Positions 4,311 through 52,191 are shown, counted from the first letter of the whole stretch. The stretch is 53,799 nucleotides of DNA, filler included, from Sluysia triapertura (GCA_046118255.1; 4 parts of 4 records of this genome joined end to end with filler, not necessarily neighbours in it), one strand, 5' to 3'. Numbers and translations are program-made. The notes: generated from the sequence alone by a model not told the origin.

Positions 4311-4786
4311 TATTTTAAGTTAATAATTTGATTTTTAGCCATGTGTAAAATAATTTTGTGGGAAACACTCTGCCAAATTTATTTTTAAAATATTTAACCA
4401 ACATTACTATTTTAAACTTTCTGGATATTGATATTTTTAGTGTTTGTTGCATCACTCCTGGTTTCTTTAGATAGATTGTTATATCTTTGATACTATTATA
4501 AATGTTATTGTCAATCTCATCACTTTAGTCACTTTTAGTATCGTTTAGTGGAGATTTATGATAATAACAATTTGTTTTTGATTTTTGTTTAAGCAGTAAG
4601 TTTTTGTGTTGTTGTTATTGATTTGATTTTCAAAAACTTAATTTTGGGGTGAATAATTATTATTATCAAAATAAGGAAATTACTGAAAATTTATACTTGA
4701 TATAGTTAATACCTAAATTATTGAGATTCGTTTTAAGCTAATTAAACTGATATTGATTTATCGTAGCTAATAACTTTCAAAGACGC

Positions 4787-4829
<43 letters not shown>

Positions 4830-8788: not shown

Positions 8789-9668
8789 TCAACAAGAGAA
8801 AACAATGTTCTCTGATTGTAAATATAAAATTTTGGTCTAGAGTTTAATCCAGGTTTAATACTTGGGTGCAAAGTTAAATAATTTTACGTATGATTTTGAG
8901 GCTAAATTTATTAAAGCCTAACTTAACAAGTATTATCTTACTTAATGCTGATAAAAATCCGAGAAAATATTGTTCTTCAAATCAATACGATTAGTAGTAC
9001 CTGATTCTCCAAATCACTTCTGAAAATCCAAATAAATTCTTCTTAATGAAAACTGATAAATTTGGTTATGTTAGCCGCATTATAACCAAATTTCGAAAAT
9101 CCAAATATCACGACAGTAACTTTAAAACGTTTATAAAAATTTCTCGGCTGATTAATGTTGTTTTCCGAATCTTCTTGTATTTTTGTATGTATATTTATTG
9201 ATGATAGATAATAAATATTTTTATTCTTCTTAGTGCCATAAAAATGTTTTTTATTTATCGGAATTTAGTAATTTGCTCATAAAATTTTATAGAATTATTT
9301 TTTAATATTATTTTTATTATTTTTCTCACAGTTATTAAAATCAAATAAATTTTTTATAATGATCTATAGTTTTATTTACAATTTAAATTTACAAATTAAA
9401 ATTTTAGAATAAAATAATAATATTTACAATCAAATGATTTTTAATACAATTTTTCTAAAATCAATATACAAATTTTTTAATATTTACAAAACTGATTCAT
9501 ATTTAAAAAGGTTCGTAATTGATTTATCTGTTTTGAATATTTGACTTTATTATTGGTAATTTATAGCTGTAAAATTAGTTAGTCTCATTTGTTTTAATAT
9601 TTTGATATTTTTATCATTATACAGAATTTAATTGAGGTTGATTTATTGAATTTTTGATTTTAAAGTTA

Positions 9669-9776
9669 TGATGAGATAAAGGCCTAAGGTGGCACTTGGT
9701 ATGGTTGACTATTCTAATCTAAAAATTGTTAGATGGGGCTGATAGCTCAGTGGGTAGAGCACCGAACTGCACAGCA
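9669..9776 (+). mobile_element. 3'-truncated copy of the leader + tRNA-Cys-like repeat
   Basis: gataaaggcctaaggtggca...ttgactattctaatctaaaaattgttagatggggctgatagctcagtgggtagagcaccgaactgcacagc; stops just after the anticodon loop. Confidence 0.8.
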
Positions 9777-10579: not shown

Positions 10580-11750
10580 AAATGAAATTTCTATAAAACT
10601 AATCAATCGACTTTATGACAATTAACAAAGAAATTTGAAAAATTAAAAGAATTGTATCGCAAGCATGTTAACTAATCGAAAAGTAATGAACATATTAAAT
10701 GAAAGGAATATTCATCAAACTAAATTAAACTTTAAAGCAAGATTTAATGATCGTGCTATAATGAAAAGATCGCTTAAAGATATTCAGTTTTATCATTCCG
10801 TAATGAAAACTACAATGACGATGATTTTAGAACCTATTTTGTGCAAAAGGGATAGTATTGATCGAATTATTGCTGAAAATATCATTAATGCAAAATTAGA
10901 AGCTTTTACCAATCAGCCGGAACTATTAATTATGCAAATGAGCGTTTAACTGTTGAAGTTTTCAAAGTATTCCTTAAATTGAAATACAAAGCACCAGATT
11001 CTTTTATCAAATAATCCTATAGAAGTTCCTGAACAACATAACTTTCGTATCGAAGGAGTGATTAATAAGTACTTTGTTGATTAAAATTTTATGCTTAAAG
11101 TAACAATTAGTTTGATTTCAAATTGTCTAATAATGAACACCGATTTCGAAGTGTATACGACTTACAGAGTTTGGGTCAGCGGAAGCCTTCCTAGTGTAAC
11201 CAGATGATTTAACATATATTACATTAAAAAGTATTAGACAGAACTGCTCTGATTATGACTTGATAGACGTATTAATGATCTACTTACCTAATAGTAGGTG
11301 TTCTACTGATTTAATGATCGAATTAACTAATTTAAATCACAAAGAGATGTTAATTATGTTTAGTCATGATAAATATTTTAAACTTAACCATTTATCCAAA
11401 GATATTATACCAACGTATGATCTAGTATTTTACGTAGTTGATGTAAACATAGTACCAAATAAACTGCCTTTAAAAAATTATACAGTTATTATAGTGACCC
11501 AATGGAACAAGAATGCGTGTTAGAATTAATTAATTTTGAAAATATCGATGAGCTCTACGAATATTGTCTTATACGGAACCATTCTGTAATTGAAGTCATG
11601 CAATACTTCTCTCAAACCACACGCACAATTGGCATTGTAGTATGGGTAAATATAATTATACGTACTCGAGAATATTCCAGTTAGTTCTTCCATTTCTGAC
11701 ATAACATTAGACATATTAGTTGCAAATGTTCCGTTTAAAACTAAAACTAT
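10580..11750 (+). pseudogene. Decayed intronless orphan coding region of unknown family (probably mobile-element cargo)
   Basis: Run of same-strand ORF fragments (10665-10949, 11260-11523, 11502-11684) with protein-like composition, linked by stops and frameshifts; no motif recognised. Confidence 0.4.
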
Positions 11751-11838
11751 GTACCAAAGAAAAAGATTATATTCATCATATTTATGTAATTTTCTGATAT
11801 TTTTAATATTTTGTTATCATTATAAAATTTTTACTTGT

Positions 11839-12060
11839 TGTGAAAGAGATGAAATAAGTTTTTATTTTGTTATTTGCTGTTCATTTAAAGAATTAATCGT
11901 AGGCCTTAAGCTTACTGTACATTTCGAGTCTAAAACAATGAGTACGGGCTTTAAGTCCCACTTTAGCAAATTAATTGTAATTATTTTAAAAAATTTCTTT
12001 TTATTACGAATTTTTCATTTAATAAAACCTCGACCATCACAGTGGTGTCAGGAGTGGGAT
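11839..12060 (+). mobile_element. 5' LTR (~11839-12041) followed by a tRNA-Leu primer-binding site (12043-12060); internal region truncated
   Basis: TGTGA...TCACA termini, AATAAA at 12021, then TGGTGTCAGGAGTGGGAT, the complement of the 3' 18 nt of tRNA-Leu(CAG) including CCA. The LTR start is inferred from the inverted terminus only. Confidence 0.75.
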
Positions 12061-13223
12061 TTAACGTCCATTTATTTCTTTATAAAACTGAGTGAACCAA
12101 CAATAAAATATATTAGCTAATAAACAATGAAAAATATAAATTATTATTATCAAAGTCTGTAAATATCAATCATCAAATAATTATTTATTTTAAATATAAA
12201 CATAAATTGGAAGTACAATTTATTCAATTCGTTGAACAAAGTTCATAGATTATAACGACATAAAAAGGCAGCAAAAATTAAGGCGTCGTCGACTTTAATT
12301 GGAAATAATTATGTGGGATATCTGTTCAGAGCTTATTTCAATTGAAAACTTCGAATAATTCATCTCAGGATTAAAATCATTGTCTGTAATAATCAAAGTA
12401 AGATAATAATTTTTAAGTATTGCTTCGATAGGTAGCATTAAAATATGACTCAAAATTTAATACATTAAACCCAAGAATAACTCCTGGGTTAAAATATTCT
12501 CTAAAATCACTATATTTATGAAGAACAGAAAATCTTCGAGTTTTAAATTGTATATATTATTATTATTTGGTTGTTGTAGTAATTTTTCTTTGAAGTATAT
12601 TTTAATCTTACGGTTTGAGTTCATTATTTAAAGTTTGTAAGTAATTTACTAAATTAGAGAATCCTTGTAAAAGTTATAATACATTTTAGATAAGTTTAGA
12701 GAAATATATATATTGTTTTTAAGTTTATTGAAGTTTACACGTAATTTGCTTTTTAGATAAGTTTAAATTGAGGATACATATTGTTATTTGATTAATAGTT
12801 ATTTGCTGAACGATAAATTAAAGGATTTTGTGTTTACGGATACATATACAATACAGTTATTGAAAGCGTAAGAGAAAACTTTTGCATTAATAAGAAGATT
12901 ATTTATTCGGTAGCTACGTCTACTGTACGTTCTAAATCGTAGACTACAGACAAACACGCTTAAATTTTATAATTGTTATAAGACATTTTACTTAAAATTA
13001 TAACACATTAAATTATCACGATTTAAGGAATAAATGTAATGATAAAATTTAAACATCTTTTATTTTATTATATGTAAATATGAATGTGTAACTACGAATG
13101 AATAAAAGTTATATCACTCAAATAAAAAATGTCTCAATATTTTAATAAATTTTTAATACCTTTTTTATAATATCAAGTATTTATAATTTAACTTCATCTT
13201 TATTAATGGGAAAGAAATATAAC

Positions 13224-27963: not shown

Positions 27964-29436
27964 AGCCCAGGGTATAATTTAAAAGATGAATCATTTAAGT
28001 ATAGAAACTATTAACTATTAACAAATTAAAATTCTGTTTGTGTTTCTTATTTGTGACAAAAATTCGTAACTGTAATTTCAACTAAACTTGTATTTTGCAA
28101 AAAGCATGTCCTTCGAATTATATCGTTTGGTGTTTTGGCTGTGAAAACTTTATTTTTTTTACCGATACTACACTATGGCTAATGATTTTCAAGTTTATTT
28201 CGTATATATAACCAAATTCTTTAATATAAGAATTTTAAGTCATTTTTTGAATATACCGAGATTACTAAAATGCTTTAATTTTATTATAAATTATAAATTC
28301 TCACAACTAATGAATTTAACCCTACTGCATTATAACTTCACAAAATATGACATAGTAGAAAATATAATAGATAAATTAAATGTTTGTTTAACTAAATAAG
28401 TCATAAGATATTTCAGTAAATTTATGTATATATCAGGGGTGGCCAAGCTCATAATTTTTCAAAATTTGAAATTTTTCGCTAGCCGCAATTAAATACGTAT
28501 TAAAAAAGTATTCAAAAAAGTATTAAAAATTTTTTTTCGATGACTTTATCATTCTTAACTTGGACGAAACTGAAATTTGTTACAACGTTACACTTAGTCT
28601 TTCATATTTGTTGTCAGTAATTTAATTAATTAATTAAACTTAACTTAGAGGGTCTCTTCTAAACTTAAATTAATCTTCGATTTTTTTGCTTGAACTCAAA
28701 TAGTTTTCTAATATTAAAAGACAATAAAAAATGTTAACGACTATAATTTAAGTATTAAATAAATTAATGATAGAGTGTTGATAGACCTTGCAGATGCTTC
28801 AGATAAGTTTGGAAAACCGCGGAAGGCATTAAAGTAGAATTTGTGAACCTTGAGATCATCTAAGACTTCACTAAACTTTATAAATCTTTGAGACTCTGAT
28901 AAGCGTTTTAGATATTTTGCTAATGTTTTTTCTTAAATTAACTACCGGCAATTTAAATTATAATAATCAGGTTCGCCTACCGTTAACGGTTTATGCCTAG
29001 CGCGACGTTACGCAGGATTTTATATGTATTTTAATGAAGCTCTATAAACTTCTGATCAACTTAATTTATTAACGCGTCTTTTTTGGCCTAACGTAAGTAA
29101 TCTTCTGATGTGTTAATAAACTTTCTAAGAGTGTCTAAAGATTTTCCTTTCTTAAGTGGGTGTAATTTAATGTTTATAAAACTTATAAAATTGTTTTTAT
29201 CTTCTTATTCTTACTGTACTTTGATTACGTTACAGGGTTAGAATCTATCAGTTATTATTATACTTAAACAATTCCGTATTATCCTGACTTTTAGTCACTC
29301 TAAATTTTTTGATAAAAAATTAATTCTTTATTAAACCAATTAATGAAGCAACTCTAAATTCTTAATAACAGTGATGCTGTAAAACTGAATAATTGATACT
29401 TTACAATACGGCGGATTTTAAAATGGCGATTCGCAT

Positions 29437-29515
29437 TGTAGGGAAATCATATCAAAATATCCATCACATAAAAACATCAATTAAACGAACTACTAGACTC
29501 ATTCAAAAAATAAAC
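29437..29515 (+). repeat. Dispersed repeat; direct copy at ~41546-41650
   Basis: tgtagggaaatcatat..catcacataaaaacat..attaaac.aactacta.actcattcaaaaaa in both; both copies lie next to or near contig ends. Confidence 0.75.
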
Positions 29516-29726
29516 AACCATTGTACATAATTATCATGAACTATAGCTATTGTTGTTATAATTCCAGTCGTATTAAAATATATTAGGATTATTGTCGTAT
29601 AATATAATTGCCAGGATTGTCACATAATAACTGTCATATCAATATCATCAATACCATTATTTTATTATTTCGTCATTATTATTTCTTTATCCTTATTATC
29701 AACCTTTCTTTTTATTCTTTTGTTTT

Positions 29727-29826
29727 NNNNNNNNNNNNNNNNNNNNNNNNNNNNNNNNNNNNNNNNNNNNTTAATTAATTAANNNNNNNNNNNNNNNNNN
29801 NNNNNNNNNNNNNNNNNNNNNNNNNN
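29727..29826. other. Assembly join with TTAATTAATTAA linker
   Basis: 44 N + 12-mer + 44 N. Confidence 0.95.
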
Positions 29827-30077
29827 TTATTGTTATTAATTACATCTTTGTTTTATTACTGTTTGTTTTTTTTAATGAAATAACGAGTTTTGTTAAGATT
29901 TTAAATTCCTTATTTATTTCAGGCCTTACGTCTATTTTGTTAAATTTAATAAAAATATGTTTGAGTTTAGGTTTAATTGTAGTTAATTTAATTCAGATAG
30001 TTTATGATAAAAAGTTAAGAATAAACAAAATTAGTCCATTGATTCATAATTTCAAATATTTCTTGCCCTCCACAGTA

Positions 30078-31563
30078 AGAACTGCAGATAATGTATTATT
30101 AAGTAGTACTTGCGAAAGGGGTTCAATAGAATACGAAGGCAAAATTTATAACAATGTAGTAGCACAAGAAACATACGTTGTATATCTAAGATCTTTCAAT
30201 GAAAGTTTCGATTTAGAAAAAGGAACTATGATGTCATGACCATAATGTAATAGTGACCAAACTAGCTATGATACTGGTGAGCCAAACTAATATATGAATT
30301 AGAAAAATTCCAATGTCCTCTATATTTCTAAAACAAATCAAATTTAATTTAGTTTCTTGATTTATGTATTAGGATGATGACGAGTTAGCAGTAGAAGAAA
30401 TAAATAAAAAACAATTTTACAAAGACAATTTAGATTAAACACAAAGAAAACGAATTAATGAAGTAGAAACACCTTTGTTACTAATTGTGAATAAAGAAAA
30501 AGATGAATTAATATTTGTTTCAAAAAGTCACTAGGAAATTCCAGAAACAAATTACCAAAGTATTTATTTGTCTGAAAACAAGATAATACAAGCCAAAAAA
30601 GTCATAGATACAAAGAATTTGAAACTAAATACGTATTTCAATAATAAACTAGACTTTTATTGCCATTTAGGATTGATATCGCTTGAAAAAGTTTATCAAG
30701 CAATGATAACAAGATATTGTCAATGAAATAAAGAAATCTTAAGGACTAAATTAGCAGTAACAATTACTAACACAGATCTTGTAGCACCACTACTTCCTTT
30801 AGAAGAAGAAGTATTTGGTAGATTAATGGGTGAAGTCTTATATACTTATAAATGTAAAACATTTGAAGTACAAATCAGACAAGAAAATCATTTTACCAAC
30901 GAATTACCAGTTACATACAAAAATCAGCCAACTTACCTAGAACCAGTGCCAAGAATAATAATACCAAATAATAAACTGAAACAGAAAATATTACATTATT
31001 CTAACGTGATGGCACCAGAATGCAAAATTGATGATAATTTATGGATATCATTGCCTCACCGTAGTCAAGTAAAGAGATAATTTGATTAATAGAATTAAAA
31101 TCAAAATTAACATTCTCAGCTAAAAAGAATATTCCAAGATCGGGAATATATTCAAATGAAGATATTCAAGCAGCTTGATATGAAATATTATTTCCTATCA
31201 AAAATTGTTAACAGAAATTGTTGATAAAGCAGTAGTAAAAACAAATGGCAAAATAAATTTTGAATTACTACTAGGACCAGATCATTAAAAAAAGCTGCAT
31301 ATAATACATTAAAACAGATATGTGGAAGTTTCTTGTTATTAGGAAAAAATATCATGCTTTACTTGGAAACTAATATAGGATGTTTTCTTTTTTGGCTAAA
31401 TTTATCTTACATCATCATGCACATTCTCATTTAAATGCTCTTAAAACGAAAGAAAACAAACAGAAGAAATAGCATTTCAAACAATTAACGTTGAAACAAT
31501 AGAAAAAATAAATGAGCTAAAACAAAATTTATCCATCAAAAAATGTGATTTACATGATCTGTG
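30078..31563 (+). pseudogene. env: Chuvirus-like envelope glycoprotein (N-terminus missing)
   Basis: CERGSIEYEGKIYNNVVAQETY..; LNTYFNNKLDFY..LEKVYQAMITRYCQ*NKEILRTKLA..DLVAPLL..GRLMGEVLYTYKCKTFEVQIRQ..NELPVTYKNQPTYLEP..RII..W. This matches the recalled chuvirus G pattern (NVVVQ; Y.NSK..Y; LY......C..E...L; GEV....KC..VEV; ELPV; L.P.TRI). Confidence 0.7.
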
Positions 31564-31583
31564 AAAATAATAATTATAATAGT

Positions 31584-31900
31584 GCGGGAAGACAAATGGT
31601 AGATATGAAAATTAATGGAAGAATGTTATAAGCATTGGCAGATACCGGAGCAGTTGATTCTTTAATAAGTGAATCAAAATTAACTACAAAAGAACTTAAT
31701 AATCTATCTAAACAACAATCTTATTTAACAGGAGTAACTGGAGATGAAATTGAAATTCTTGGAGTATTAAAAGTACTGTGAAATTAGAAAAAATACCATT
31801 GAAATTAAATGCAGATTAATGAGAAAATGTCCTGAAGATATGATAATTTGAATGGATGTGTTGTCACAATTAAAAGGAGTCTTATTAGACTTTAATAAAT
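31584..31900 (+). pseudogene. Retropepsin aspartic protease 1
   Basis: VDMKINGRML*ALADTGAVDSLIS..LTGVTGDEIEILG..CPEDMII*MDVL; DTG at 31641. Confidence 0.85.
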
Positions 31901-32419
31901 CAAGATTAGTGAATAGCTATATTGATCGACCAGTTGATGACGATGATGTTGTATTAAAGGAACCTCATTGGATATTGAGTCGAACTGAATATATTATACC
32001 GGGTAAAACAAATAGTCTCAGGAACGGCCCAATAATGTTTATTTCTTCAAAGAATAATCAAGAAAAGTTGCATAGTGGAATAGCAGACTTCCTCTGAAGA
32101 ATCCGCGATGGAAATATTCCAATATGAATAATAAATTATACAGAAGAAAATAAATGGTTTTATGCAGGAAAAAAATTAGGAAATAAAGTAAGTTATAAGT
32201 TAGATACTCAAATAAATTTAATATCAAATAGTAATAGTGATAACCAAAAAAGTAAAAATATCAAATTACAAAGAAATATAGATACCGACCTTGATGATTA
32301 TGAAGAGATAAAAATCGAAAACAAAAATGTAACAAAAATCAAAAGGAATTATTATATAAAGTTATTTATCCATATCCTTGGGCAATAGCCAGAAATAAAT
32401 ATGATATAGGTAATTCGGT

Positions 32420-33059
32420 AATAATAAAGCATGAAATTCCATTACTAGAAGATATAGAAAGAAACCATATCATATACCTTTGTGCAATCAACAAGAAATG
32501 AAAATCAAATTGAAACAACGAAAAAAGCGAGAGTTATTCGACAAAGTTTGTTACAATTCTCTTCGCTAGTATTATTAGTTAAAAAAGAAGGAACTATGAG
32601 ATTTTGTATCGATTTTAGAGAATTAAATAAAATCACAAGGAAAGATGTATTTCAATTGCCACAAATGGATGAAATGTTGGATAAATTAGGAAATTCTAAA
32701 TATTTCACTACTTTAGATCTTCAAAGTGGTTATTGGCAAATTGAAATAGCAGAAAATGACAAACATAGAACAACTTTTCATGTGGAGATGAATTATACGA
32801 ATGTGAAAAAATGGCATTTGGATTAACTGGCGCGCCAGCAACATTTCAAAGATGTATGAATTTTGTTGTAAAAATGTAATAGTATAAATTGACGATATAA
32901 TAATATTTTCAAAAGATTTTAACGCAGACGTAGTAGATATCAACAATACTTAAAAACGATTAGAAGTAGCAAGATTAAAAATAAAGTCAACAAAATGTGT
33001 TCGGGCATAAGAACAAGTAGAATTTTTGGGAAATGTAGTTTCAAAAGAAGGTATAAAAC
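32420..33059 (+). pseudogene. pol: Gypsy reverse transcriptase, N-terminal part
   Basis: LVKKEGTMRFCIDFRELN..YFTTLDLQSGYWQI..MAFGLTGAPATFQRCM..V*IDDIIIFS..KC..VEFLGNVVSKEGIK. Confidence 0.95.
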
Positions 33060-34248
33060 TATTCAGCTTTTTAAATAAAACTATAACAATTATGATATTA
33101 TCATTTATCTGGATCCTCCTGTGATATACGATTGACATCTCACGGAAAACGTATTCACAGGATGTCAAATGTCATATAAACTACGTTTAAAGTTCCTTAA
33201 CTCCTTTAATGCAACTTATTCTAATATTCTTTGTAAATTAAATAATCGTTTAACGCAATTCTTTATTTATGAAAAGGATTAATTATGCAATTTAAAATTT
33301 TTTTAAAGTTTAATTCTTAAGAGACAGTAAAATCACACGATAAAAACAAATTTTACTATAAATTTTACTATTTATTATAACTTATCAAAATACTAGAGAT
33401 ATAAAACTGTAAAATCTATACAAATATTTATATATATAAATAAATTCAGGATTACTCCTTAAACAAAATTTTCAGATTTTGAATTAGATTTTAACTCAGG
33501 CGAATGTCTGAGTGTAATATAAATGATTTTGAGTCGATTTTGATGAAAAAAATATCAATGCAAAACCTTAAAGAAAAATAGCATACTTATTCATGGGATT
33601 ATGGTATGAATTATTTCTGCGACAAGCCAAATACTGATCTAATCCTCTAGTAGCAAACTGACGATTTCTTCGAAAAAATTATTTCTTGGAGTAATACGAA
33701 TAATCTCTTCCAAAAGATTTGAATATCAAAATTTTCTTTAAATAACGTGTAACGATTAATCCTTCGGCGTATATAAATGTCAAAACGTTCTAAGTTTTTT
33801 AACTTTTGTTTTTGATTTATATATGTATTTCAATTTACTTTGCCGACTAGTAATAAAATTGTTTGTATTTTAATTTTTTAGCGATAAAATTATTTATGTT
33901 AATTTTATTTTCGTCTTTAGCGATAAAATGAAAATAAATTATTTAATAAAAATGGAATAAAAATAAATCAGTGTTCTTTCTTTATTAATTATTTTCTAAA
34001 TTAATCATTTCATAATCTTTTTTAAATTAAACAATTTTACGAAAATAATAACAGACTTATTTTAACTATTCTTACAAATTTTATCATTTAATGTATTTAC
34101 AATAATAATAATTATTTACGTTATTTACAAAAAATCAATTAATTAATTTATAAAAATAATGAAATTAATAAAATTAACGTTATTTACAGTTTCAGTGATT
34201 AATTATTGAAAATGACAAATAATGAATAACATAAATTTACATATTTAC
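33060..34248. mobile_element. 1.19-kb nested insertion splitting RT, with target-site duplication
   Basis: AAAAC at 33055-33059 and 34249-34253; removing the insert and one copy restores GGT ATA AAA CCG AAT CCA (GIKPNP). Confidence 0.85.
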
Positions 34249-34860
34249 AAAACCGAATCCAAGAAATATAAAAAAGGTTGTAAAGTTTCCACAACTCGTT
34301 AACATTAAAAAGACACAAAGTTTTCTAGGATTGTCAAATTACTACAAGAGATTCGTAAAAGATTTTGCAAAAATTGCTTGACCAAATGCTCACAAAAAAA
34401 AACGTAACATTTAAATGGACTGAAGAACAAACTAAAGCATTCAAAAAATTAAAAGAAAAGTTAACAACAGCTCCAATTTTAATGTTTCTGGATATAAGCA
34501 AACCATTCATATTAACAACGGATGCAAGTAATTTTGCTGTAAGAGCAATATTGGGACAGAAAAGTAAAGATAACTTAGAAGGAGTAATGGCATATGCAAG
34601 TAGAAGATTAAATAAGGCAGAGTTGAATTACTCAACAATAGAAATAGAATGAGTATGCTTGTAAAGTACGTGCTTGTAAATTATTTAGACATTATCTATT
34701 AGGTCAAAAGTATATTTATATACAGATCATAAGCCATTGACCTACTTGTACAACCACAGAGATGAAGTAAATCGTTTAAATAGATGGTTCACCAAGTTAG
34801 CAGAATTTTATCTACAAATAATATATAAACCTGGTGCAGATTGCATGTCTTGTCTAACTA
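34249..34860 (+). pseudogene. pol: RT thumb/connection and RNase H
   Basis: QSFLGLSNYYKRFVKDFAKIA..FKWTEEQTKAF..PFILTTDASNFAVRAIL..AYASRRLNKAELNYSTIE..YTDHKPL..RLNRW. Confidence 0.95.
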
Positions 34861-35029
34861 ATATAGACGAACAAAGAAATGTAAACTTTATTCAAATAAT
34901 GGCTATATCAGGTAAAATTGAAGAACCGAAAGAAATCATTAAAAATCAAAGAAAAGACGAGGAAATGACAATATATATTTGAAGCAATAGCCAAGGGATT
35001 ATTAAGTGAAGAGCAAGCTAAGAAATTAG

Positions 35030-36140
35030 CAATAACTAACGGAATACTACGTTTTAAAGATTCTAAAGATGATTGGAAAACAGTAATACCTAAATCGTTG
35101 ATAACTCCTTTATTAATTCAATTTCACGATGGCCAATTAGGTGGACATTTATTCACAAGAAAAACGTAAACAAGAATTAAGAATAAATATTATTGGGATA
35201 ATGTGGATGAAGATATAAAAATTAGTGTAAGAATTATGCAGTTCGTTGCAGAAGAAAGAATACTGGAACGAAAACCAAGGTACCATTGAAACCAATGTCG
35301 ATTCAACTCTCTCCAATGGAATTTACTGTAGTGGATATAATGGAACCATTGCCAGAAACAATTAATGGAAATAAATATATAATTGAATGTGAGGATTATT
35401 TAATAAAATGGCCTGAAGCTCATCCAATATCAAATCAGAAAGCTGAAACAGTAGCTGAAACAGTAGATATATTAGTTGAGAAAATAATATATCTATATGG
35501 AATGCCTAGAAAATTATTAACCGATCAAGGAACTAATTTCACTAGTGATGTATTAAAGGCAGTCACTAAAATATTTAATATTCTGAAAATATATACTTCA
35601 CCATACCACACACAGACATATGGAATGGTAGAAAGATTTAACAGAACTTTAATAAATGTGCTTCAATCGTATGTGAATGAAAGACACAAATATTGGGATC
35701 TTTATATGGCTCCGTGTTTATTTGCATATAAATGTGAATATTCCTGATGATTTAGAATGGATATCACCATCATCTCAATGCCTAGAAACACCTGAATATG
35801 TAACTATTATGAGAGAAAACTTACAAGAATCATGTAAACGCGCACGTTTACAAATACGCTATGTTCAAGAAACTTATAAGGATAATTATGACAAAAAAGC
35901 GAAAGCACATAATTTTGAAATAGGAGATATAGTATTAGTGGATTATCCAATAGTGAAACCAGGATATTCTCCAAAATTACTTGAACAATTCAAGGGACCA
36001 TATGAAGTAATGAAAATAACGTCTACTAAATGCTGAAAATTTTGTAATACATGTAAATCGGTGTAAGTTAGCACCAAAAGATGAATATAATCTAAGAAAT
36101 AGAAAAGTTACAAAACGTATCTTAAAATTAAAGCTAAGAT
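35030..36140 (+). pseudogene. pol: Integrase (zinc-binding region, core, GPY/F tail)
   Basis: FHDGQLGGH..YYW; VDIMEPLPET..KWPEAHPI..YGMPRKLLTDQGTNFTS..TSPYHTQTYGMVERFNRTL; FKGPYEV..VIHVNR..YNLRNR. Confidence 0.95.
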
Positions 36141-36206
36141 AGAGTCAAACCAACTCAACTATATGTAGATTAACCAACAAAGAAAATCACAGAAAGTGAA
36201 ATAAAA

Positions 36207-36578
36207 ATGATACCTTCTTCATTCAATTTACAAAGTCACCTAATGCAAAGTGTAAAATTTAATCAAAGTTGGATGATAGCAGTTATAGACACTGGCTCTA
36301 ATAATACAATGATAAATTATTATAAGTTAAACGCTTTGGAAGTACTAATGATTCAAGATGTTGGATTAAGATTATTCACAGTAGATGGATCAATTATAAG
36401 ATTTAATGGAATGCTACAATGCCAATTAACTATTTTAGATTTAGATGTATTTATACTAATAGTAGTTTGGGATGTTTGCCCTTATGAAATAATAATAGGT
36501 ATGGACGTTATAAGTAAATTAGAAAATATTGTCAGTCATGGTAGATTAGGATTTCTAAAGATGCCAACAAATGCATAA
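36207..36578 (+). pseudogene. Second retropepsin-like aspartic protease, downstream of integrase
   Basis: MIAVIDTGSNNTMIN..RLFTVDGSII..G..CPYEIIIGMDVISKL; both the DTG and IIGMD motifs are intact. Confidence 0.85.
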
Positions 36579-37375
36579 ATATCTTTACCACAAATCGTAT
36601 TACCATCAACATTGAACGGAATATCAAAACATAGTAATTATTCACCAAGACCACCTACACCTAGACTGGTGGGATAGGGACATCAACATCTGGATCATCA
36701 GATACATCAGGAATAGAAACTAATAATGGTAATGGTGATTACAGTAATAGTGATAGTAACAGTAATATAATGTTAATGACAGGAATATGGAATAATGAAT
36801 CTTTATATTATTACTCTAATATTATTATTTATGCAATTAATAACAATGATAACTTCGTATCCACTAATGTAGTATACACTAATACTACACAAGGACTATT
36901 TGTAGAAAATACTTTTAATCGATATTGGTCAATAGAGTTGGTTATAAAAAACGAAATCCCAAAATAGTACTTAATAAAACCACCTTCAGACATAAACAAT
37001 ATTTACTACTGCGAACACTCAATGTATTATAATACGATTTTAGCAATTTCATTACATAATAATAAGTCTCAAATGGAATATTTTAAAGATGTGTTTAAAA
37101 ATGTTAAATACCATAATATTATTATTGAAGAATGCAGTCCACCATTAATGAGTCAACCAATAATAATCGAAACAAAGAGTAACACTATCAATGCAAATAA
37201 TACTACATCAATTAAACAGAAAGGAGATAATAATTATAACTTTTTAATAATACTTGCAATATTTACTTTCCTTTATTTAATGTCTTCAATTTATTATATA
37301 ATTATTTGTAAAAAGACATTAAAAACCTCAAATATGAGAAAAGATATAATGTTATTAGTGTTGTTATCAATAATG
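36579..37375 (+). pseudogene. Continuation of the PR2 frame: Pro/Ser/Thr linker, unknown domain, transmembrane helix, second hydrophobic stretch; truncated at a SINE-like copy
   Basis: Reads on through TAA (36578), one frameshift (~36675) and TAG (36967); FLIILAIFTFLYLMSSIYYIIIC-KK, then IMLLVLLSIM. Confidence 0.6.
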
Positions 37376-37425
37376 ACCCACTGAGCTATCAGCCCCGTCT
37401 AACAATTTTATTTTATTATAGTCAA
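37376..37425 (-). mobile_element. Fragment of the leader + tRNA-like repeat
   Basis: Reverse complement reads ttgactataataaaataaaattgttagacggggctgatagctcagtgggt. Confidence 0.8.
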
Positions 37426-37808
37426 AATTTAAACATCGTGTGTTAATAATATTATGTTTTGATAAATTATATTGAAATTTGACTCGAAATTGTTACATTT
37501 AGACAAATTTATTAAAAGAGTTTATTTATTTGAGTTTGATAACCTTAAGAAATTTTGCACTATAAAAATGTAATCATATTTAATTAAATTAATCTCAACT
37601 TTATTATTTACCAAGGAAATACAAAAATAGACACTTAATTGATTTATTTTACAAAAATTTGTAATAGTCATTTAAATTTTGCTGTGGCCTAATCATTTTC
37701 TGAGCATGCCTCACCATATCGAAAATTGAGGTTCTAAAAAAATATAAACAGTATAAATATACAATTTAATTTATATAAGAATGAGTTAAACTGAAATCTA
37801 GTGTTGCT

Positions 37809-38360
37809 TTAAAATTCTTTTGGTTCCTCCAGTCTAATGGTGATGATGTCACCATTAATAGTAAGGCACAGATGATCATTGGAATTCGATGTTAAACTAA
37901 AAAGATCCTTAATTTCAAAAGTTTCGTGATCATAGACACAGTTTCTGCCATATCTGGAAAACTCATCATTCTCCATTCTACCATGCAAGCATAAACCATG
38001 TTTATAATATTTGCATTGATGGACAACAGATTGTAAATTTTTACGCGAAGATATGTTGTCAGTCATTGTTTCTACTTTTGTCATGTTTATTACTAATGGT
38101 ATGATTTTACTTGTGATCACATAAGAGTCGACGTCAATAGGGACATGCATACTTTATCTACTTTCATCATGATATACATTGAAGTATTAAGATGATGTAT
38201 CTATTTGTTTTATTTGAAAGTCATGAGATATTTCAGTGAATTTTAATTCTATAATTGGTTCTTTAACGAATTCTAATATTTTAAACTCTAAGCCACCAAA
38301 TTGTATGATTAACAAGAATCTTAACGATATATTATCCAAAAGTTCATGTTTAGATAGCAT
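37809..38360 (-). pseudogene. Orphan intronless ORF with a CCCH-like zinc finger; two in-frame stops upstream of the tracked ORF
   Basis: ATG at 38360 is in frame with ORF 38150-37809; CKYYKHGLC-x16-CVYDH. Confidence 0.45.
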
Positions 38361-38629
38361 GGTTTCGATGAATAATTAATTTATACGAAAATCGATTTGA
38401 AAAAATTGATATAAATTCTACAAACAATAAATCGGATTAAATTATATCGAAATATAAATTAAATTGATTTGTTTTATAAACTGAACTTATAAATTTGTTT
38501 ATACCACAATGTTTTTTACGTCACTCTTAAAATTATAGTGTATATAATTATAGGTCTCGATCACATGTGGTAAATTTATTTTTAACACTGATTGGTCGAG
38601 ATTGAATAGCTAATCAGGTAATCAATATA

Positions 38630-38900
38630 CAAGGCAAGTTTCATTCTGCACACTATGCTGTAAAAATAAATAATGAAAAATAAGTCTGTCGATGATTGGG
38701 CGTCCAACTAGATGAGACAAAACATAAAACAGAAAGACAATTAATTGGACATCCAGTCAACTGAAGTAAACGACGCTGACAGTTTAATACAATATCATGA
38801 TTTAGTTTAATGCACTGACGACTAGTGAAGACCTGACTAATTAAATTAATCAATAAACAGATAGTAATGTATAATAATAATGATAGTAATGAATAATATT
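38630..38900 (+). mobile_element. Possible 3' end of an RTE-like LINE
   Basis: Decayed IGRPTR*..NIK..D...LDI (GRP..RW motif) followed by a (TAA)-rich tail. Confidence 0.3.
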
Positions 38901-39644
38901 AACTAATAATAATTATAATAAAATTAAGTAATAATAATTATAATAAAATAATATAATGAAACTTAAGAACATAAATCCTTTCTATGTTTAATACACGAAC
39001 TTTCTATAATTTTATTTACTATTTTCTTAACATTTTATGAAAAAAATCCTTTAAAATCATAAATGATGTTCTTATATCTTTGTTTTCTTATACTTTTATA
39101 GATAAAATTTTGCAATACTAGTTTTGACTCTTGTTTCTTTTGAAAAAGAATGTGAATTTAGAAAGTGCTGATAAGAGAATGTTTGAAAGAAATGATGGAT
39201 ACTAAAGTGTTTCCAGAATGTTATTTTGATTACGTCTAATGTGGTTTTAAAGTGTTAATTTAATGTTTTCAGTGATATTAGAGATTGGGTGTTGAGGATT
39301 GTCAACTTGAAATATTTTAGATTGATTTTAAAGTTTATGTTTGATAGTTTGAGATGTAATTGTGATTCTAACGTTATACGATCGTGAGTAAATCTTTTAA
39401 AAGAGTTTTTAGATATAGATTGATAGTTTTGAATGTAATTAAGATTTGGATGTTGACAGGTTATTAATTTAAATGTTTTAATTTGATTTTTAAGTGTATG
39501 ACTGATGACTTACGATGTCAAATATGATTTTTATGTTATAAAATTCAGTGTTCACAGTGTTTGCAAGTATTAAGAGTTGTGAATGTTGTGAAGAGTGATT
39601 TTGTTATGTCATCATAAAATAAAATTTGTTAAAGTAATAAGTTG

Positions 39645-39681
39645 GTCACCACACATGGCACTTTAGGCCTTTACCCAAACA
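39645..39681 (-). mobile_element. Leader-only fragment of the tRNA-like repeat
   Basis: Reverse complement reads tgtttgggtaaaggcctaaagtgccatg. Confidence 0.7.
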
Positions 39682-41651
39682 ATACATGCCAAATAAAATT
39701 ACACAACAAAGTATAAAATTCAGAAACAAATGATTAATATATGTAACTATATGAATATTATAATTAGAGCAAAACGTCTAAATTCAGTATAAAATTTTAG
39801 ATTTAAGATTGTCTCTAACTTAAAATTAGAGATGTGCAAATTACTAAATAAATTAAGGAAAAATGTATTGCTTATGAAAATATGTTAAACTTATAATTAT
39901 CAACTTACAAAATTTCAGGAAACTGGAATCATTAATATTTGTTCAATTAATAAGATGGATCAGGAACAGCTTTACCAAGAAATTCTCAAAATTTAGTTTA
40001 ACATTTCGTGCCAACAATCAATCGTGAAGAAACCAATTAAGTGTACTCAGGTTAATTAGAAGGCATTTCAATCCTTCGATCCAATTTGATTTTCTAACGG
40101 ATAAATCACGAGCATAAAATTATTTCGAAATCACAATGGATTTAACCACGAGAAATATAAAAAACTGTAACAATGCTTTTTGGTTCAATCTTATATAGTA
40201 GTTTGTTATTTACTAAAACATACAATTTATTTTCCATTTATTTTTAATTAAAAGTAAACGGTATTTGTTTATTTATTAATTAAATTTTCCATTTTCAGAT
40301 TAGAAATTATTAATATAAATGGTTAGCACTCTACATTATTTCTTTAAGTAATTAATGTTTATTTACGAAATTTCGTCCAAGTAATATTCATTTTTATTTT
40401 TATTTTATTATTATTTTCTGGTTATTATTCTTATTATTGTTATTATTTAACTTCAAAATTTAACACCTAATACTGGATAAATGCATTTTAACTGAAAAAT
40501 GTTGGTTCCAATTGAGGCGCCAAATTTTTCCGTAATTTTTCTAATTTTTTGAGCAGAATTCGGTTACACTAAACGTCTTATAAAGAGAGCGTTTCCGTAA
40601 CTAAGTAAGCTAATAGTTTATCTAAGTGTTATGTGGATATGGTCTTAACAATATATAAGTTTCTCAAAAAGCTTTAGTAATTTGTATTTAAATAATGCAA
40701 AAAGCGTTGATTTTATTTATAAAATACAAAAGTCTAAATAATGATAAGAGAATATAAATACAATTTTTTATAGATTAAATACAATACTTAAATATTTTAA
40801 GTTAATATTACCCTTTAATATATTGGAGACTTCAAAAATTTACAAATGATATGAAATTTACTTATATTTTAAATTTTCAACTTCTAAAGTTGAAAGTGAC
40901 CCTATAAATATATATTTTACGGATAAATGGATTTAATGTTGACCAGTAAATATTTTCTAATTTTTTATTAACTTCTAAATGCGAACAGTTATTAAAAATT
41001 CACAAATCCCCAACAAAGACACTGCAAATTGAATCAAATTAAACTGATTTTTCAAAATGGCGATTTTCTTTAAACTGATGCTAGTTTACATAATAGTCAT
41101 CAGCCACTGACTGAGAATCCATCAAATGTTCTATGACATACTAAAATCTGTTATTCTATTTAGAAGCTAATTTTCTTTTTTCGAAAAATGATTTACTTTT
41201 TGGAAAATAAGATTTATAATTGATTTTTAAATAGTTTTAAATAATTGTTGGGTTATGGAATGTTTATGTTTTTGACAAAATTTAATTTTATTATATTGTT
41301 AAGACAAAGTAATTTTAAAAATTGTAATGAGAAAACATATTTGATAATTTTATTTGAATCAAAAAGAATTTTAGTAATATTTGAGAACACAAAGTTATGA
41401 TTTTGTTTGTCATTTCCAGACTGTTTTGAATTCACTTGGTAGGAGGTTCTAAAAAGATTAAAATAATGTGAATAAGTTATAATGTTACAAATAAAATTAA
41501 TGATCAAGTTAAGTTCAATAATTACTTTTAAATAGCCAAGGCCGTGTAGGGAAATCATATAAAATTCATCACACTTCATCACATAAAAACATTTCACATG
41601 TACACAGATCATTAAACAAACTACTAAACTCATTCAAAAAACAAACATAAT

Positions 41652-41751
41652 NNNNNNNNNNNNNNNNNNNNNNNNNNNNNNNNNNNNNNNNNNNNTTAAT
41701 TAATTAANNNNNNNNNNNNNNNNNNNNNNNNNNNNNNNNNNNNNNNNNNNN
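41652..41751. other. Assembly join with TTAATTAATTAA linker
   Basis: 44 N + 12-mer + 44 N. Confidence 0.95.
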
Positions 41752-47462: not shown

Positions 47463-50400
47463 CTGAAATAAATAATAAAATATTTTCACATAATAATTAA
47501 TAATTATTATTAATAAGTTTATTTAGACTTAGGATTTCACAAAAATGCACTAATTTCACTAATATCTAAATATCTTTTTTAGTATAAAGCAGAGATCCTA
47601 GCCTTTCACAACTTAAGACTTTCTAAATTCATGAAGGTACGTTTTGTTAATGCATGCTTCCTTATTGACATCCTAGGTGCATAACTCATAACATAATTAA
47701 AATTCCAAGTTTAAATTACCTAATCTTTAAACACTTCGTTAGCCTTAAAACAATCTACGTCATTCAAACTTTAAATCATTTAACAATAACATTAAACAAA
47801 AAAATTCACCCTACAAATCATTTACCAACTCAACCAATTCATATCTGTACAATATTAAAACATTACTGCAACCTAATTCAGCAAATTATACTAATCCTAC
47901 GCTTAAAAATCATTTAATAATTCCTTAAACATCATGCACAATATATTTTAATACGCAATTTAGAAGAGTATTCCTTTAATCATTCATACACTAGTCATTC
48001 AAACGATACCCAAACATCAAATAATATGTTAAATTATGTATTGAGAATGAAAAAATAGATACAAAAATCATAATTAAAATCATAATTGGTGTTTATTATT
48101 GTTATATACATTATTATATTTTTTAACATACTATTACAAAAATATCAGCATCCATTAGAGTTCATACATATTTTTATTAATTTGGTGGCTCACCATTTAT
48201 TCAAACATTAATTATCGTTGGCTCACTATTTTATTATTGCTAAATAGTTTAATATCCATCATTCAGTATTATTTTATTATATTTACAATAAATAATACAA
48301 TATCTTTTAAAAGTTCGAACCACTAAAATGCTGCGTAATACTTAAAACGAAATCTATTTAAAAATTTAGAAAATATAAAACCAATGAGAAAGTGATTAGA
48401 TATTACTATGTACCAAAAATAAAAATGGACGCCAAAAGTTAGAGACAATTAAAAAGAAATTGGCAACAGCAAAAATTAATATTAATTAAAAACAAAAGTG
48501 CGATTAATAATTACAAGCAAAGTTGAAAAGATTAAAAATTGTCCGATAAAAATCGGAATAAGGTATTACAGAAATTGTATTTTTTAATTTTAAAAAATAA
48601 TACAGCTAATGATACTAAAGAGGTCAATACAAAATGAATGTTCGATTGCCATTATTTGTTAAATAATGCAGTATCTAAGTATGATATTGATGTCTCCAAA
48701 AGACGTAGAATGTCAGTTTGCCAACTTATACAGATGAAGTCTAACAATACGAAAACTCTAGATAATTCCTCTATTATTTATAATCGATTGACAATCAATT
48801 TCTAAATGATCAAAGATTTTTAAAGTTTTTGGAACTTCAAACTCAAAACGTTATACAACATCAGTGTAATTCATTAATGGAATTGCGACAAACAGACGTA
48901 TGTTAGGTAAAAATTGAAAAACACAACAATCTAGAGGTGACATGAATTAATGTTTTAGGACAAAGAAATTACAATGAAACTGCGGAAGTAGAAATCTAAT
49001 TAGGTAGCTAAAAGAAATATAGAAAGAATTTAAAAACATGTTTACTTTAAGTACGTGTGTGGTGTCCCAGCCATTTGCCGTATCTTTGTTATCACCCACA
49101 CTCTTAAATTTACATAAAATTCATTCACTACATCCTAAAACCTAAAATAGAATCATTAATATACAAACTGTAAAAATATTAATATTAAAATTGCTCTTTT
49201 TCCAGCATCGTCTTCCTCATTCTCATCAACACCATTCCAAAGAGCATCTTGAAACTCTTAACGTTACATTCTCTTTTGTTAAAATATTTATTAAGCTGTA
49301 TATTAAAAAAATTTATATTGTATTTACAAATTCATATTTTTAATTCTTATGTATTAATGTTCGTAACCTCAAAATTGATAACATTATCACAACTTATTAT
49401 ATTGATAACTCAGAAAGAAATAAAAAGAAATCTAGTAATATGATAAGTTTAGAAGAAAAATCAAAAATATATTTTATGCTCATTTTTTTGGTTTTAATAT
49501 TAAAAATTTTCACATTAAAAAGATAATTTGGATTCTTCATAATTTTGTTAATAAAATTTGATTAATGTGTTTTCTTAGTTGTTCATATCATCAAAACGTT
49601 AACCATATGTTGTATGAAGACTTCGGTATTTGTTATTAAACACTTTTGGCTGATTGGGCGCGAGATGAATGCATGCTTGTTTAAATAAAAAGATAATGTT
49701 CTGTTGTATAAATTGCTATTGTTCAATTATTAAATAAGTGTGTAACGGATTTACATCTAGAGCAATATTTTTATAACAATTAAATAAAAAATAGCAATAT
49801 TTTATTCTTATTATTATAAAGTAATAGAAATGATTTTTTACGTTTGTTTAAGTTGACCTTGAAGATTATATCACATTTTAACTTTGTATTACATATTTTG
49901 TGTTTAATTTTTAAATTTTTTTGAATATCTTAATTTATTGGAGTTGAAGTTAATCCTAATGTAACTCAAATACGAACGTATTCAAATATATCTTGTATAG
50001 AAAAAATTATTAAAAATAAACTGTTGAGTTATATTTTATAGTTTATTGTTGAATTTTATTTTTATAATTTACATTTTATTGTCAAGTTTAAATTTTATTA
50101 AAATCATTATTTTTATTATAAAATAGTATTAAATAACTTTTTCAAAAATAATAAATTGGTACTTTAAATAAAATAAGTAAATTTTATTTTCTAAAATAAG
50201 TTAATAATAAATTTTAAGCTAATAAAATATTTTTTTATTTTTTTGTTTAAACAAAGCAATTATAAAGAAATTGTTTAAATGAAGTACTTTATAAGCAGAT
50301 AAGATAGCAATTTAAAAATTTTATTATAATTATTTTAATCTCATCGTAAGACTAGAGATTTAAATTTTTTACTTAAATTTTATTAAATTTGATTCTAGAC

Positions 50401-51071
50401 CGTAACATTGTAGATTAATTTTTATCTAATCTTTTTACCAAACTCTAATAGATGTAATATCTTTTAAGTATTACATAAAATAATTATAATTTTTACTACA
50501 AAGTGTATAATTTTTATTTTAAGTATATAAAATTATCTAAAATATAAGTTCTTATTGTTTTTTAGAATTCATTAAATATTTTAAAAATTAAAATCATTAG
50601 TGTGTAAACTAGACCGTAAAAGGCTAGTTCAAATTGATTTCACACACTAGATCGTAATGAAGCTAGTTTAACCTATATTAAAATATATTGTGATAAATTT
50701 ATTAAATTATTCGTCATTTCCTCTTCTTCTTTTCAGAAGCAGAAACACAAGATTAATGATACTTCTTTATTTCATGGTAAAAAGTACAACTCACATTCCT
50801 GATAAATATAAATTATTTAACACATTCTTAACACATAGAAGATGATATGTGATGAAAAGCGTATAGCCCGAATTGTGATAATTTCTAAAACACAGTTTTA
50901 TATTTTATATACTCATAATTGCAGTTTTTATACGATGTTGCTTCAAATTCCATTTAACGTGAATTCCTTAGTTCCATCCTCAATGTGTTAAGAATGAGAT
51001 CGCAACTAGAATAAAATACTTTTATTGTAACTACATATTTAAATATAATTAACAATCAATGAAATACAAAC

Positions 51072-51664
51072 CAATAAATTTCCAAACTGTTTTAAGAAGA
51101 TTTAAAGCTTCATCACTAGTTAACAAAGAGCTTTTTCTATCACTTCCTGATCTACTCAACATACTTACACAAATACCTAATTGTCTGTACAAGGTGTATC
51201 TTGGATAAGCACTATTCGGTAAATTTTGTACAAGATTAGCAAAATAAATCGCTTTACCTTTTATATATTCTGTATCTAATGAACAAATAGCTGCATGTAC
51301 CAATAAGGGATTATTAATAGTTTCGATTTGGGACATTATTTTATCTAAATTGATATTAGTACAACCAACACTTAAACATTGCAACAACCAGTCTACTGCT
51401 GGTACAAACAATTGTAAATAAGGCATATTAGTATCGCTAGATTTAATTATATCAACATTTGAATATTTTTGATTCATTAATTTAAGACTTTCTAAAACAT
51501 CTTCAAATGCAACTTCAAGATAATCTTTTCGATGCGGATATATAGAAATACCAATACGAGCTACATATGCTCGAGCATATGTTGCAAGAAGAGGATCGCC
51601 AATACCTCTAGTCATTTTCATTAAACGATTTAATGATGGCCCAATAGAGTCACTTTGAAAGAAT
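51072..51664 (-). CDS. VPS35L: VPS35L exon 4
   Basis: RLMKMTRGIGDPLLATYARAYVARIG..PAVDWLLQC..LLKTVWKFI. Confidence 0.93.
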
Positions 51665-51702
51665 CTGAAAATAAATAATTACATACATAAAATTAAACTT
51701 AC

Positions 51703-52159
51703 TTATAGCATGGCAAAAGAACAGCTTCCACATAAAGTCTAGCAACTAATTCTCGAATTGATGCTACTTTATAGAACCAATTTTTAGCTGTTTCTTTAGC
51801 TACTTCAGGTACTTGATTTTCTTTAAAATTTTCCGGTAACGTAATAGGTACTTTAGATCCTCTCTGAGTATAAGTAGATTTACTTTTTAACCTTTCGTAA
51901 ACCAGATTACCAAAATTATCTATTAAATCGGTTACTAGAACAAATTTGCTGGGAAAAAATTGTACTACATTTACTTCTGAAAGTAATTTTGTGGTTTGTA
52001 TTACGATTTGTAGTGATTTTACACGTTGACCTTCATTCCAAGATTCTTTTAAAGCATGATTTAATTCATTAATTTTTTCCGTAAATTGATGGGAATTTAA
52101 ATTCGACGTTTCACGAATTTCTTCGTCGAATAAATCTAATTGTTCTATTTTGTTTTTAA
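51703..52159 (-). CDS. VPS35L: VPS35L exon 3
   Basis: WNEGQRVKSLQIVIQTTKLLSE..QFFPSKFVLVTDLIDNFGNLVYERL..AKETAKNWFYKVASIRELVARLYVEA. Confidence 0.93.
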
Positions 52160-52191
52160 CTAAACCTCAGTTAAAGCACAAAATGTATTAC

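Follow-up and report, generated by a model that had tools for sequence, protein, structure and literature searches.

Does a viral-type glycoprotein lying directly ahead of the polymerase of a retroelement mark a new type of infectious element, or a member of a known one? This question is raised by a stretch of DNA from Sluysia triapertura (GCA_046118255.1; 53,799 nucleotides with filler included, hereafter the window), for which a preliminary description had reported a Ty3/gypsy element at positions 30078-36140 with a chuvirus-like fusion glycoprotein (G) upstream of Pol. We find that this locus is very probably a dead, 5'-truncated Ty3/gypsy copy, likely of a Burro-like GAG-ENV-POL errantivirus. 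In its intact relatives, a single frame codes for Gag, a G of gB/chuvirus type, one or more proteases (PR), reverse transcriptase (RT), RNase H (RH), integrase (IN), and a predicted membrane protein. The arrangement with the envelope gene (env) before Pol, which had been put forward as a candidate new retroelement type, is already known, as the available text of two papers documents (PMC6431247, of 2019; PMC13524379, eLife 2026), and the window adds one decayed member.

The glycoprotein and Pol of the window copy

The domains lie on the plus strand in the order G-PR-RT-RH-IN (Table 1), as the preliminary description had proposed. G extends from inside domain I/II of the ectodomain to the membrane-anchor region. 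The stop-free stretch 30727-31077 matched PF24664 (Monjiviricetes_fusion) in Pfam with an E value of 1.9e-11 and 43 bits (cut-off 27), and 30075-30236 matched a glycoprotein profile in hhalign (probability 91, E 1e-6). In tblastn searches, the related proteins P0001 and P0002 aligned to 30075-31428 at 31-36% identity, and faint similarity to relatives reached back to 30012; a PDB sequence search with G gave no significant match, with Bcl-xL rows appearing only at E 0.3-0.9. The window G is 5'-truncated and lacks the signal and approximately the first 120 to 130 ectodomain residues, which may have been deleted or left unassembled. No nucleoprotein or L polymerase fragment was noticed near G in the list of open reading frames (ORFs), no profile search having been aimed at them.

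We modelled the G of P0002 with AlphaFold from an alignment of 81 rows (predicted local distance difference test score 83). The best PDB match of the model was gB of herpes simplex virus 1 (E 8.7e-14), and its best viral match in BFVD was the G of Tacheng tick virus 4 (E 5e-44), a chuvirus match that is not independent because the alignment itself held stand-alone chuvirus-like G rows. In the model, the G of this relative thus folds like herpes gB. The chuvirus-G-type glycoprotein noticed earlier upstream of Pol is therefore backed by PF24664 in the window itself and by the gB-like and chuvirus-like predicted fold of a relative.

Judged from its domains, the Pol is of the Ty3/gypsy (Metaviridae) type, with the order PR-RT-RH-IN and a gypsy-type integrase. 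The integrase is 53-60% identical to those of the 8 closest Pols, which carry gypsy-type Pfam domains (RT_RNaseH, Integrase_H2C2, and rve) and a GPY/F tail, and all 26 integrase matches at E ≤ 1e-30 are gypsy-like Pols. The closest integrase, P0005, comes from a record labelled as a Turicibacter metagenome-assembled genome, but its Pol is of animal type, so this record is likely a binning contaminant. Mosquito BEL/Pao elements with a chuvirus-like glycoprotein are reportedly named Anakin; we rejected membership of BEL/Pao for the window element on its gypsy-type Pol (Pfam domains and GPY/F tail), the tree holding no BEL/Pao reference. A dUTPase-like label for the spacer between PR and RT was unconfirmed with a 3-row profile, and no PDB match was obtained.

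The RT is interrupted by an insert of foreign sequence, both sides of which border residue 425 of the related Pol P0009. The summed contig depth of this insert is low relative to its flanks in sequencing run X1. This run possibly derives from the very sample that the window came from, two of the contigs listed being identical, and summed contig depth in it does not equal copy number. The insert is AT-rich; no terminal inverted repeat was seen in it, and only a weak 5-base repeat flanks it. Compared with three intact relatives, the copy has accumulated 25 to 47 in-frame stops and 7 to 12 frame switches, and is by its sequence dead. The protease frame, which had been read as open, is not so as far as the active site, since an in-frame stop (31629-31631) directly precedes the DTG of the first protease, and the single small indel thought to separate the G tail from the protease does not suffice, because the tail is interrupted at several places. 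It was correctly noted that no polypurine tract, long terminal repeat (LTR), or gag intervenes: no purine tract of at least 11 nt with at least 4 G was found between G and PR. The IYP motif of the linker sits at the start of the protease frame. The GC content of the window is 19-32%, and an Rfam scan of 28000-40000 gave no match.

Relatives with the glycoprotein ahead of Pol in one frame

Relatives were collected by a word-based search, which gave 2 of 96 candidates, and by a HMMER search, which gave 243 matches, 11 of them at E ≤ 1e-30. A metagenome scan added 2 confirmed out of 100 candidate stretches, the contigs L001 and L002 (12.9 and 16.6 kb), and scans of IMG/VR found nothing. In 8 of the 11 best matches, the ORF continues from G into a protease, recognised by Pfam in 7 and by motif only in P0036. 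The single ORF of P0001 has three protease motifs downstream of G. L002 holds a single ORF of 3,703 aa, with a Gag bearing two CCHC knuckles, a weak ubiquitin-like part, G (PF24664), two proteases, RT, RH, IN, and a membrane module, so that this complete relative reads Gag-...-G-PR-PR-RT-RH-IN. L001 is a 5'-open ORF of 3,426 aa with G, 3 proteases, RT, RH, and IN arranged as in L002; upstream of Pol it has, in addition, a further signal-repeat-anchor module and its third protease. The G cores of L001 and L002 are 51% and 54% identical to that of the window. P0033 reproduces the window order including the protease and membrane module after integrase, and a zf-CCHC Gag was found in L002, P0038, and P0042. 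G and RT occur in one ORF in seven proteins, with G first in all of them, and RT or IN lies ahead of G in none of the proteins scanned. The fusion of the glycoprotein to Pol that the preliminary description suspected is hence borne out in intact relatives, and the case in which G occurs only 3' of integrase was not encountered. By sequence, env before Pol in one frame is a natural arrangement and the junction is not a one-off.

Of the 10 relatives in which both the anchor and the first protease were located (13 examined), 7 have an [ILM]YP motif between these landmarks, and a signal-like stretch precedes G in all 12 relatives inspected by eye. In run X1, 17,039 contigs match 29830-38500, of which 5,809 are less than 90% alike; the element family is multicopy. 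One contig, approximately 81% alike, bridges the G tail to the protease (31443-31821), and another, approximately 80% alike, bridges IN to a second protease (36027-36337). No RNA run carrying the element was listed in the run search.

To place the glycoprotein, trees were built without rows of fewer than 200 aligned residues, retaining 22 (first tree) or 16 (second tree) of 61 stand-alone G, a term used here for the G of a Met-starting ORF of 600 to 720 aa and not of a named virus. The window G and all 13 proteins with G followed by PR stand apart from stand-alone G (Shimodaira-Hasegawa-like approximate likelihood ratio test 97; second tree 97/94). The G of Chuviridae/Monjiviricetes and herpesvirus gB share the PF24664 match and the predicted fold with the element G but are stand-alone, whereas the element G is embedded in a retroelement polyprotein; the window core shares 39-57% identity with the embedded G of its close group and no more than 36% with stand-alone G. 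In the Pol tree, the window groups with the 8 close Pols and with 5 of the 7 Pols that carry G (94/92), and the integrase-only tree gives the same group (91/91). P0047 and P0053 are single ORFs with G on a separate Pol branch. A non-retroviral endogenous chuvirus element was rejected, as the window G is not nested among stand-alone G and has a retroelement Pol attached.

Further features were seen in these polyproteins. A weak BCL2-like helical domain lies 50 to 90 residues ahead of the signal-like stretch of G in P0001, P0002, L001, and L002 (in P0002, E 0.001 for the Bcl-2 match before G). By analogy with cellular BCL2 proteins, that stretch, once cleaved, could serve the domain as a tail anchor. 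Aspartic protease domains number two to four per polyprotein (P0001, P0008, P0038, and L001), stand both before Pol and after integrase, and appear at the borders of membrane modules. The second signal-repeat-anchor module of L001 (approximately 4750-5300) lies between proteases upstream of Pol, and from its sequence, three surface proteins would arise from the one ORF of L001. A separate downstream ORF encodes an RNase T/DEDD exonuclease in L001 (10617-12107, E 1.4e-5) and in L002 (12085-13473, E 0.001); rotifer LTR elements carry DEDDy ORF3s, according to the available text of PMC5408684. Between polyprotein and exonuclease, L002 has a coiled-coil-like ORF of 222 aa (11375-12043) with no Pfam match.

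The region after integrase

The element does not end at 36140, where its limit had been set: a second protease and a membrane-protein-like ORF continue downstream and together occupy 36249-37378. A protease after integrase is also found in P0007, P0008, and P0033. The membrane-protein-like ORF consists of a Ser/Gly/Asn-rich linker, an Asn-rich segment with N-glycosylation sequons, a hydrophobic helix, and a basic loop, after which a second hydrophobic stretch begins and is cut at approximately 37378 by a dispersed repeat whose copies also lie at 529-578 and 9705-9755. This short repeat spans 37376-37429, 506-612, and 9668-9775 and is very abundant in run X1, where 539 loose ends were counted at position 37378.

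A signal or transmembrane module follows IN in 9 of the 11 close Pol relatives and in P0047, and in none of 15 ordinary gypsy Pols. FN3-like repeats are suggested by weak, convergent evidence in the module of 7 to 8 relatives. In leave-one-out scoring, which is partly circular because the repeats were picked by a motif, 0 of 300 shuffles scored as high for 7 elements and 1 of 300 for P0005; P0012 and P0047 gave no signal. The tail of P0047 after integrase has 979 residues and three hydrophobic segments and does not match the repeat profile. Both FN3 profiles (of 6 and then 13 repeats) failed on the window ectodomain, and the best six-frame match of the 13-repeat profile (49263-49406, minus strand) was discarded as AT-rich non-coding noise. 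Hydrophobic stretches in other frames at 36717 and 36801 were dropped as candidate signal peptides, as 10 of 120 random 1.3-kb window frames score as high as the stronger one. The ESM Atlas gave no usable match for the window ORF, and a complex prediction of the L002 G with its FN3-like module, made without alignments, gave an uninformative score of 0.00. In the papers available, we found no published account of an FN3-like module after integrase in such elements. Grohme 2018 may report a transmembrane protein with a single pass in Burro, and in that case the module would be less novel.

Table 1. Features of the element and its surroundings in the window
Feature	Position	Strand	Evidence or remark
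Scaffold gap (44 N, 12 bases, 44 N)	29727-29826	.	Approximately 250 bases upstream of G
Class III (gB/chuvirus-type) glycoprotein, 5'-truncated, decayed, several frames	30075-31430	+	PF24664, hhalign, tblastn
Env-to-protease linker with IYP motif	31431-31600	+	IYP at same place in single-ORF relatives
Aspartic protease 1, DTG 31641-31649	31587-31775	+	Pfam weak (E 0.08); 26-37% to relatives
PR-RT spacer	31780-32320	+	Homologous to spacer of relatives; 29-31% across the spacer and the first part of RT
Reverse transcriptase, N-terminal part, decayed	32320-33058	+	RVT_1 E 8.9e-11
Non-element insert in RT, 1,191 bases	33059-34249	+	Relatives align contiguously across insert
RT thumb/connection and RNase H	34250-34970	+	RT_RNaseH_2 E 1.9e-26
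Integrase: zinc-binding part, core, C-terminal GPY/F part	35000-36112	+	rve E 4.9e-6
Aspartic protease 2, DTG 36288-36296	36249-36572	+	gag-asp_proteas E 0.0025; 37% to P0035 protease, E 8e-11
Membrane-protein-like ORF	36665-37378	+	Hydrophobic helix 37241-37291

Elsewhere in the window, an Asn-rich ORF of 1,370 codons with C2H2 zinc fingers lies at 18604-22716 (plus strand), which we take to resemble teashirt. A C2-domain exon (13165-13620, minus strand, E 8e-12) is presumably synaptotagmin-like. A VPS35L-like host gene (51049-52166, minus strand) has cnidarian VPS35L as its best match at only 35%, which points to a fast-evolving animal lineage; a flatworm host for the window element is plausible. 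The gaps at 15984-16083, 29727-29826, and 41652-41751 each consist of 44 N, a 12-base linker with stops in all frames, and 44 N, a pattern that creates false repeats in repeat scans.

Known elements, rival explanations, and a possible mechanism

The planarian element Burro/GYPSM1 is described in the available text of PMC6431247 as the first with an in-frame env between gag and pol, lying between BCL2 and PR, and Burro fragments decaying in Dugesia japonica resemble the window copy in their decay. Burro and L002 are alike in having a long ORF, a Gag with CCHC, a ubiquitin-like part, env before protease, a PR-RT spacer, and RT-RH-IN. They differ in ORF size, the Burro ORF being of 4,873 to 5,140 aa and that of L002 of 3,703 aa; Burro elements exceed 30 kb with long LTRs, and the truncated contigs L001 and L002 are of the lengths given above. 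The BCL2-like part ahead of Burro env has at best a weak counterpart in the relatives (the Bcl-2 match of P0002), the dUTPase-like domain of Burro between PR and RT is matched in position by the conserved spacer of the window, and its MATH, BIR, and ankyrin cargo was not seen in L001 or L002 by Pfam. Neither extra proteases nor a signal-FN3-transmembrane module after integrase is mentioned in the available part of the Burro account.

GAG-ENV-POL elements with a gB-type env have been found with chuvirus-like baits in Platyhelminthes, Nematoda, and Bryozoa, and 9 are listed from flatworms (6 of them from Schmidtea), Smed_errantivirus_1-6 and Pcro_1-2 among them, in the part of PMC13524379 available. 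These flatworm HSV/gB-type errantiviruses share with the window a Ty3/gypsy Pol, a gB/chuvirus-type env, and env upstream of pol, and with the relatives of the window an internal signal before the ectodomain; the published copies are intact, whereas the window copy is decayed. Compared by eye, the ENV of Smed_errantivirus_5 matches window 30114-30239 at 14 of 42 ungapped positions and a stretch of P0001 at 23 of 37. Since the words "fibronectin", "fused", "polyprotein", and "single ORF" do not occur in this text, as available, the in-frame fusion and the module after integrase are not discussed in it. The nematode metaviruses (Sacco 2022, as cited in the available text of PMC13524379) have the same ENV-POL order, an RNA-virus-type glycoprotein, and a Ty3/gypsy Pol but differ in host and, by this description, in Pol clade. 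The mosquito BEL/Pao elements (Dezordi 2020, cited in the same text) have the same glycoprotein class, but the window Pol is gypsy-type.

Several points weigh against reading the window as such an errantivirus copy. Membership with the Burro and Smed elements, which is likely, is drawn from architecture and from the by-eye ENV match, and equivalence of Burro env and window-type G is not proven, because the available text of PMC6431247 likens Burro env both to gypsy Env (F-type) and to mononegavirus glycoproteins. The window has no long repeat pair fit to be an LTR, as is the case in the two truncated contigs, and no gag or BCL2-like piece anywhere (nor a ubiquitin-like one), the CCHC test for Gag being limited because the copy is truncated and starts near a scaffold gap. 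The distance from anchor to DTG, approximately 107 codons, is shorter than in all 10 relatives measured (131 to 391 aa). P0002, P0037, and P0040 (3 of the 11 best matches) end in or just after G with no protease in the ORF, and P0002 ends shortly after the anchor, yet the Pol P0009 comes from an equally sized contig; env-Pol fusion may thus not be universal. In addition, the chuvirus-like rows enter the fold model, the branch of the window is long and no star marks its Pol group, an approximately unbiased test did not reject a position of the window G outside (at the base of) the 13 embedded G (p 0.41), and 386 of 500 shuffles scored as high as the window ectodomain after integrase against the FN3-like profile (hhalign probability 0.07).

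Some of these points would also fit two other origins. The G-PR junction could be a one-off, formed when a deletion between tandem gag-pol-env copies put one env beside the Pol of another: no LTR or flank delimits the element, the linker is the shortest seen, and the hydrophobic, signal-like stretch that closes the region behind integrase could be where an env begins. We consider this extremely improbable, as G precedes the protease in one ORF in 8 of the 11 closest proteins and in both contigs, RT or IN never precedes G, a diverged X1 contig spans the junction, and the linker retains the IYP motif of the fused relatives. An independent capture of G from a chuvirus, outside the known GAG-ENV-POL elements, had been proposed in the preliminary description and would make the element a new type. 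That chuvirus G is the best viral match of the fold, that the approximately unbiased test did not reject the basal position, that a separate Pol branch holds the G-bearing P0047 and P0053, and that GAG-ENV-POL elements are not monophyletic in Pol (according to the available text of PMC13524379) are consistent with it. Nevertheless, the window G groups with polyprotein-embedded and not with stand-alone G, in core identity and in the supported split (97/94), and matches a published Schmidtea ENV by eye (PMC13524379, as available), so that we regard a separate capture as very unlikely.

A further alternative accepts the element as it is and takes the membrane protein after integrase to be unrelated to entry, namely a rapidly evolving cargo that would serve to anchor Pol, to imitate adhesion or cytokine receptors of the host, or to block superinfection, with the element perhaps spreading only within or between touching cells. 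P0006 lacks the module, P0008 has two proteases in its place, L001 has a duplicate of it ahead of Pol, and in P0012, P0047, and the window it is unrecognisable; such elements carry much other cargo (BCL2-like, ubiquitin-like, and exonuclease), and the profile matches are host receptors and fibronectin. Against this stand the retention of a hydrophobic module in most of the close Pols, and also in P0047, which carries G, and its absence from ordinary gypsy Pols, as well as the need of herpesvirus gB-type fusogens for partner glycoproteins (stated in the available text of PMC13524379). On balance, this account seems somewhat the more probable one, and a role of the FN3-like protein in anchoring, adhesion, or as a decoy appears rather likely; it might instead bind cell surfaces as an entry partner, a role that we consider unlikely.

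In intact Burro-like relatives, the polyprotein would thread the endoplasmic reticulum membrane like that of a flavivirus or alphavirus. Alternating membrane topologies of this kind belong to the general picture of viral polyproteins. Gag, with its ubiquitin-like and BCL2-like parts, would stay in the cytosol and an internal signal would direct G, the putative membrane fusogen, into the lumen; the G anchor would bring the chain back, leaving Pol hanging from the tail of G. A second internal signal after integrase would make the FN3-like ectodomain lumenal, held by the last helix, and signal peptidase together with the several aspartic proteases of the element would release the parts. A single membrane would then be the site of synthesis of capsid, enzymes, and both surface proteins alike, a setting that would favour the budding of enveloped particles. 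The window copy itself would be capable of none of these steps.

The fullest form of this proposal is a two-glycoprotein retroelement made from one membrane-threading polyprotein, in which a fusogen of the gB class precedes Pol, a protein of FN3 repeats that serves in attachment or triggering follows integrase, and Pol is packaged on the fusogen tail until several proteases free it; we hold it to be doubtful, slightly more so than the entry role by itself. According to the available text of PMC13524379, herpes gB needs gD, gH, and gL, and how gB errantiviruses enter cells is unknown; for these reasons the module after integrase is worth testing. The dead copy changes little, and the second predicted surface protein in its close relatives is the more useful by-product. 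If the two-glycoprotein reading is true, binding and fusion would be split in a retroelement as in herpesviruses or paramyxoviruses, the missing partner in entry of gB-type errantiviruses would be named, and one membrane-threading chain would yield capsid, enzymes, and two surface proteins. In planarians, RNA interference against smedwi-2 strongly derepresses BURRO1 (according to the available text of PMC8532177), and if the protein after integrase serves in attachment or triggering, the question of entry would become testable in these animals.

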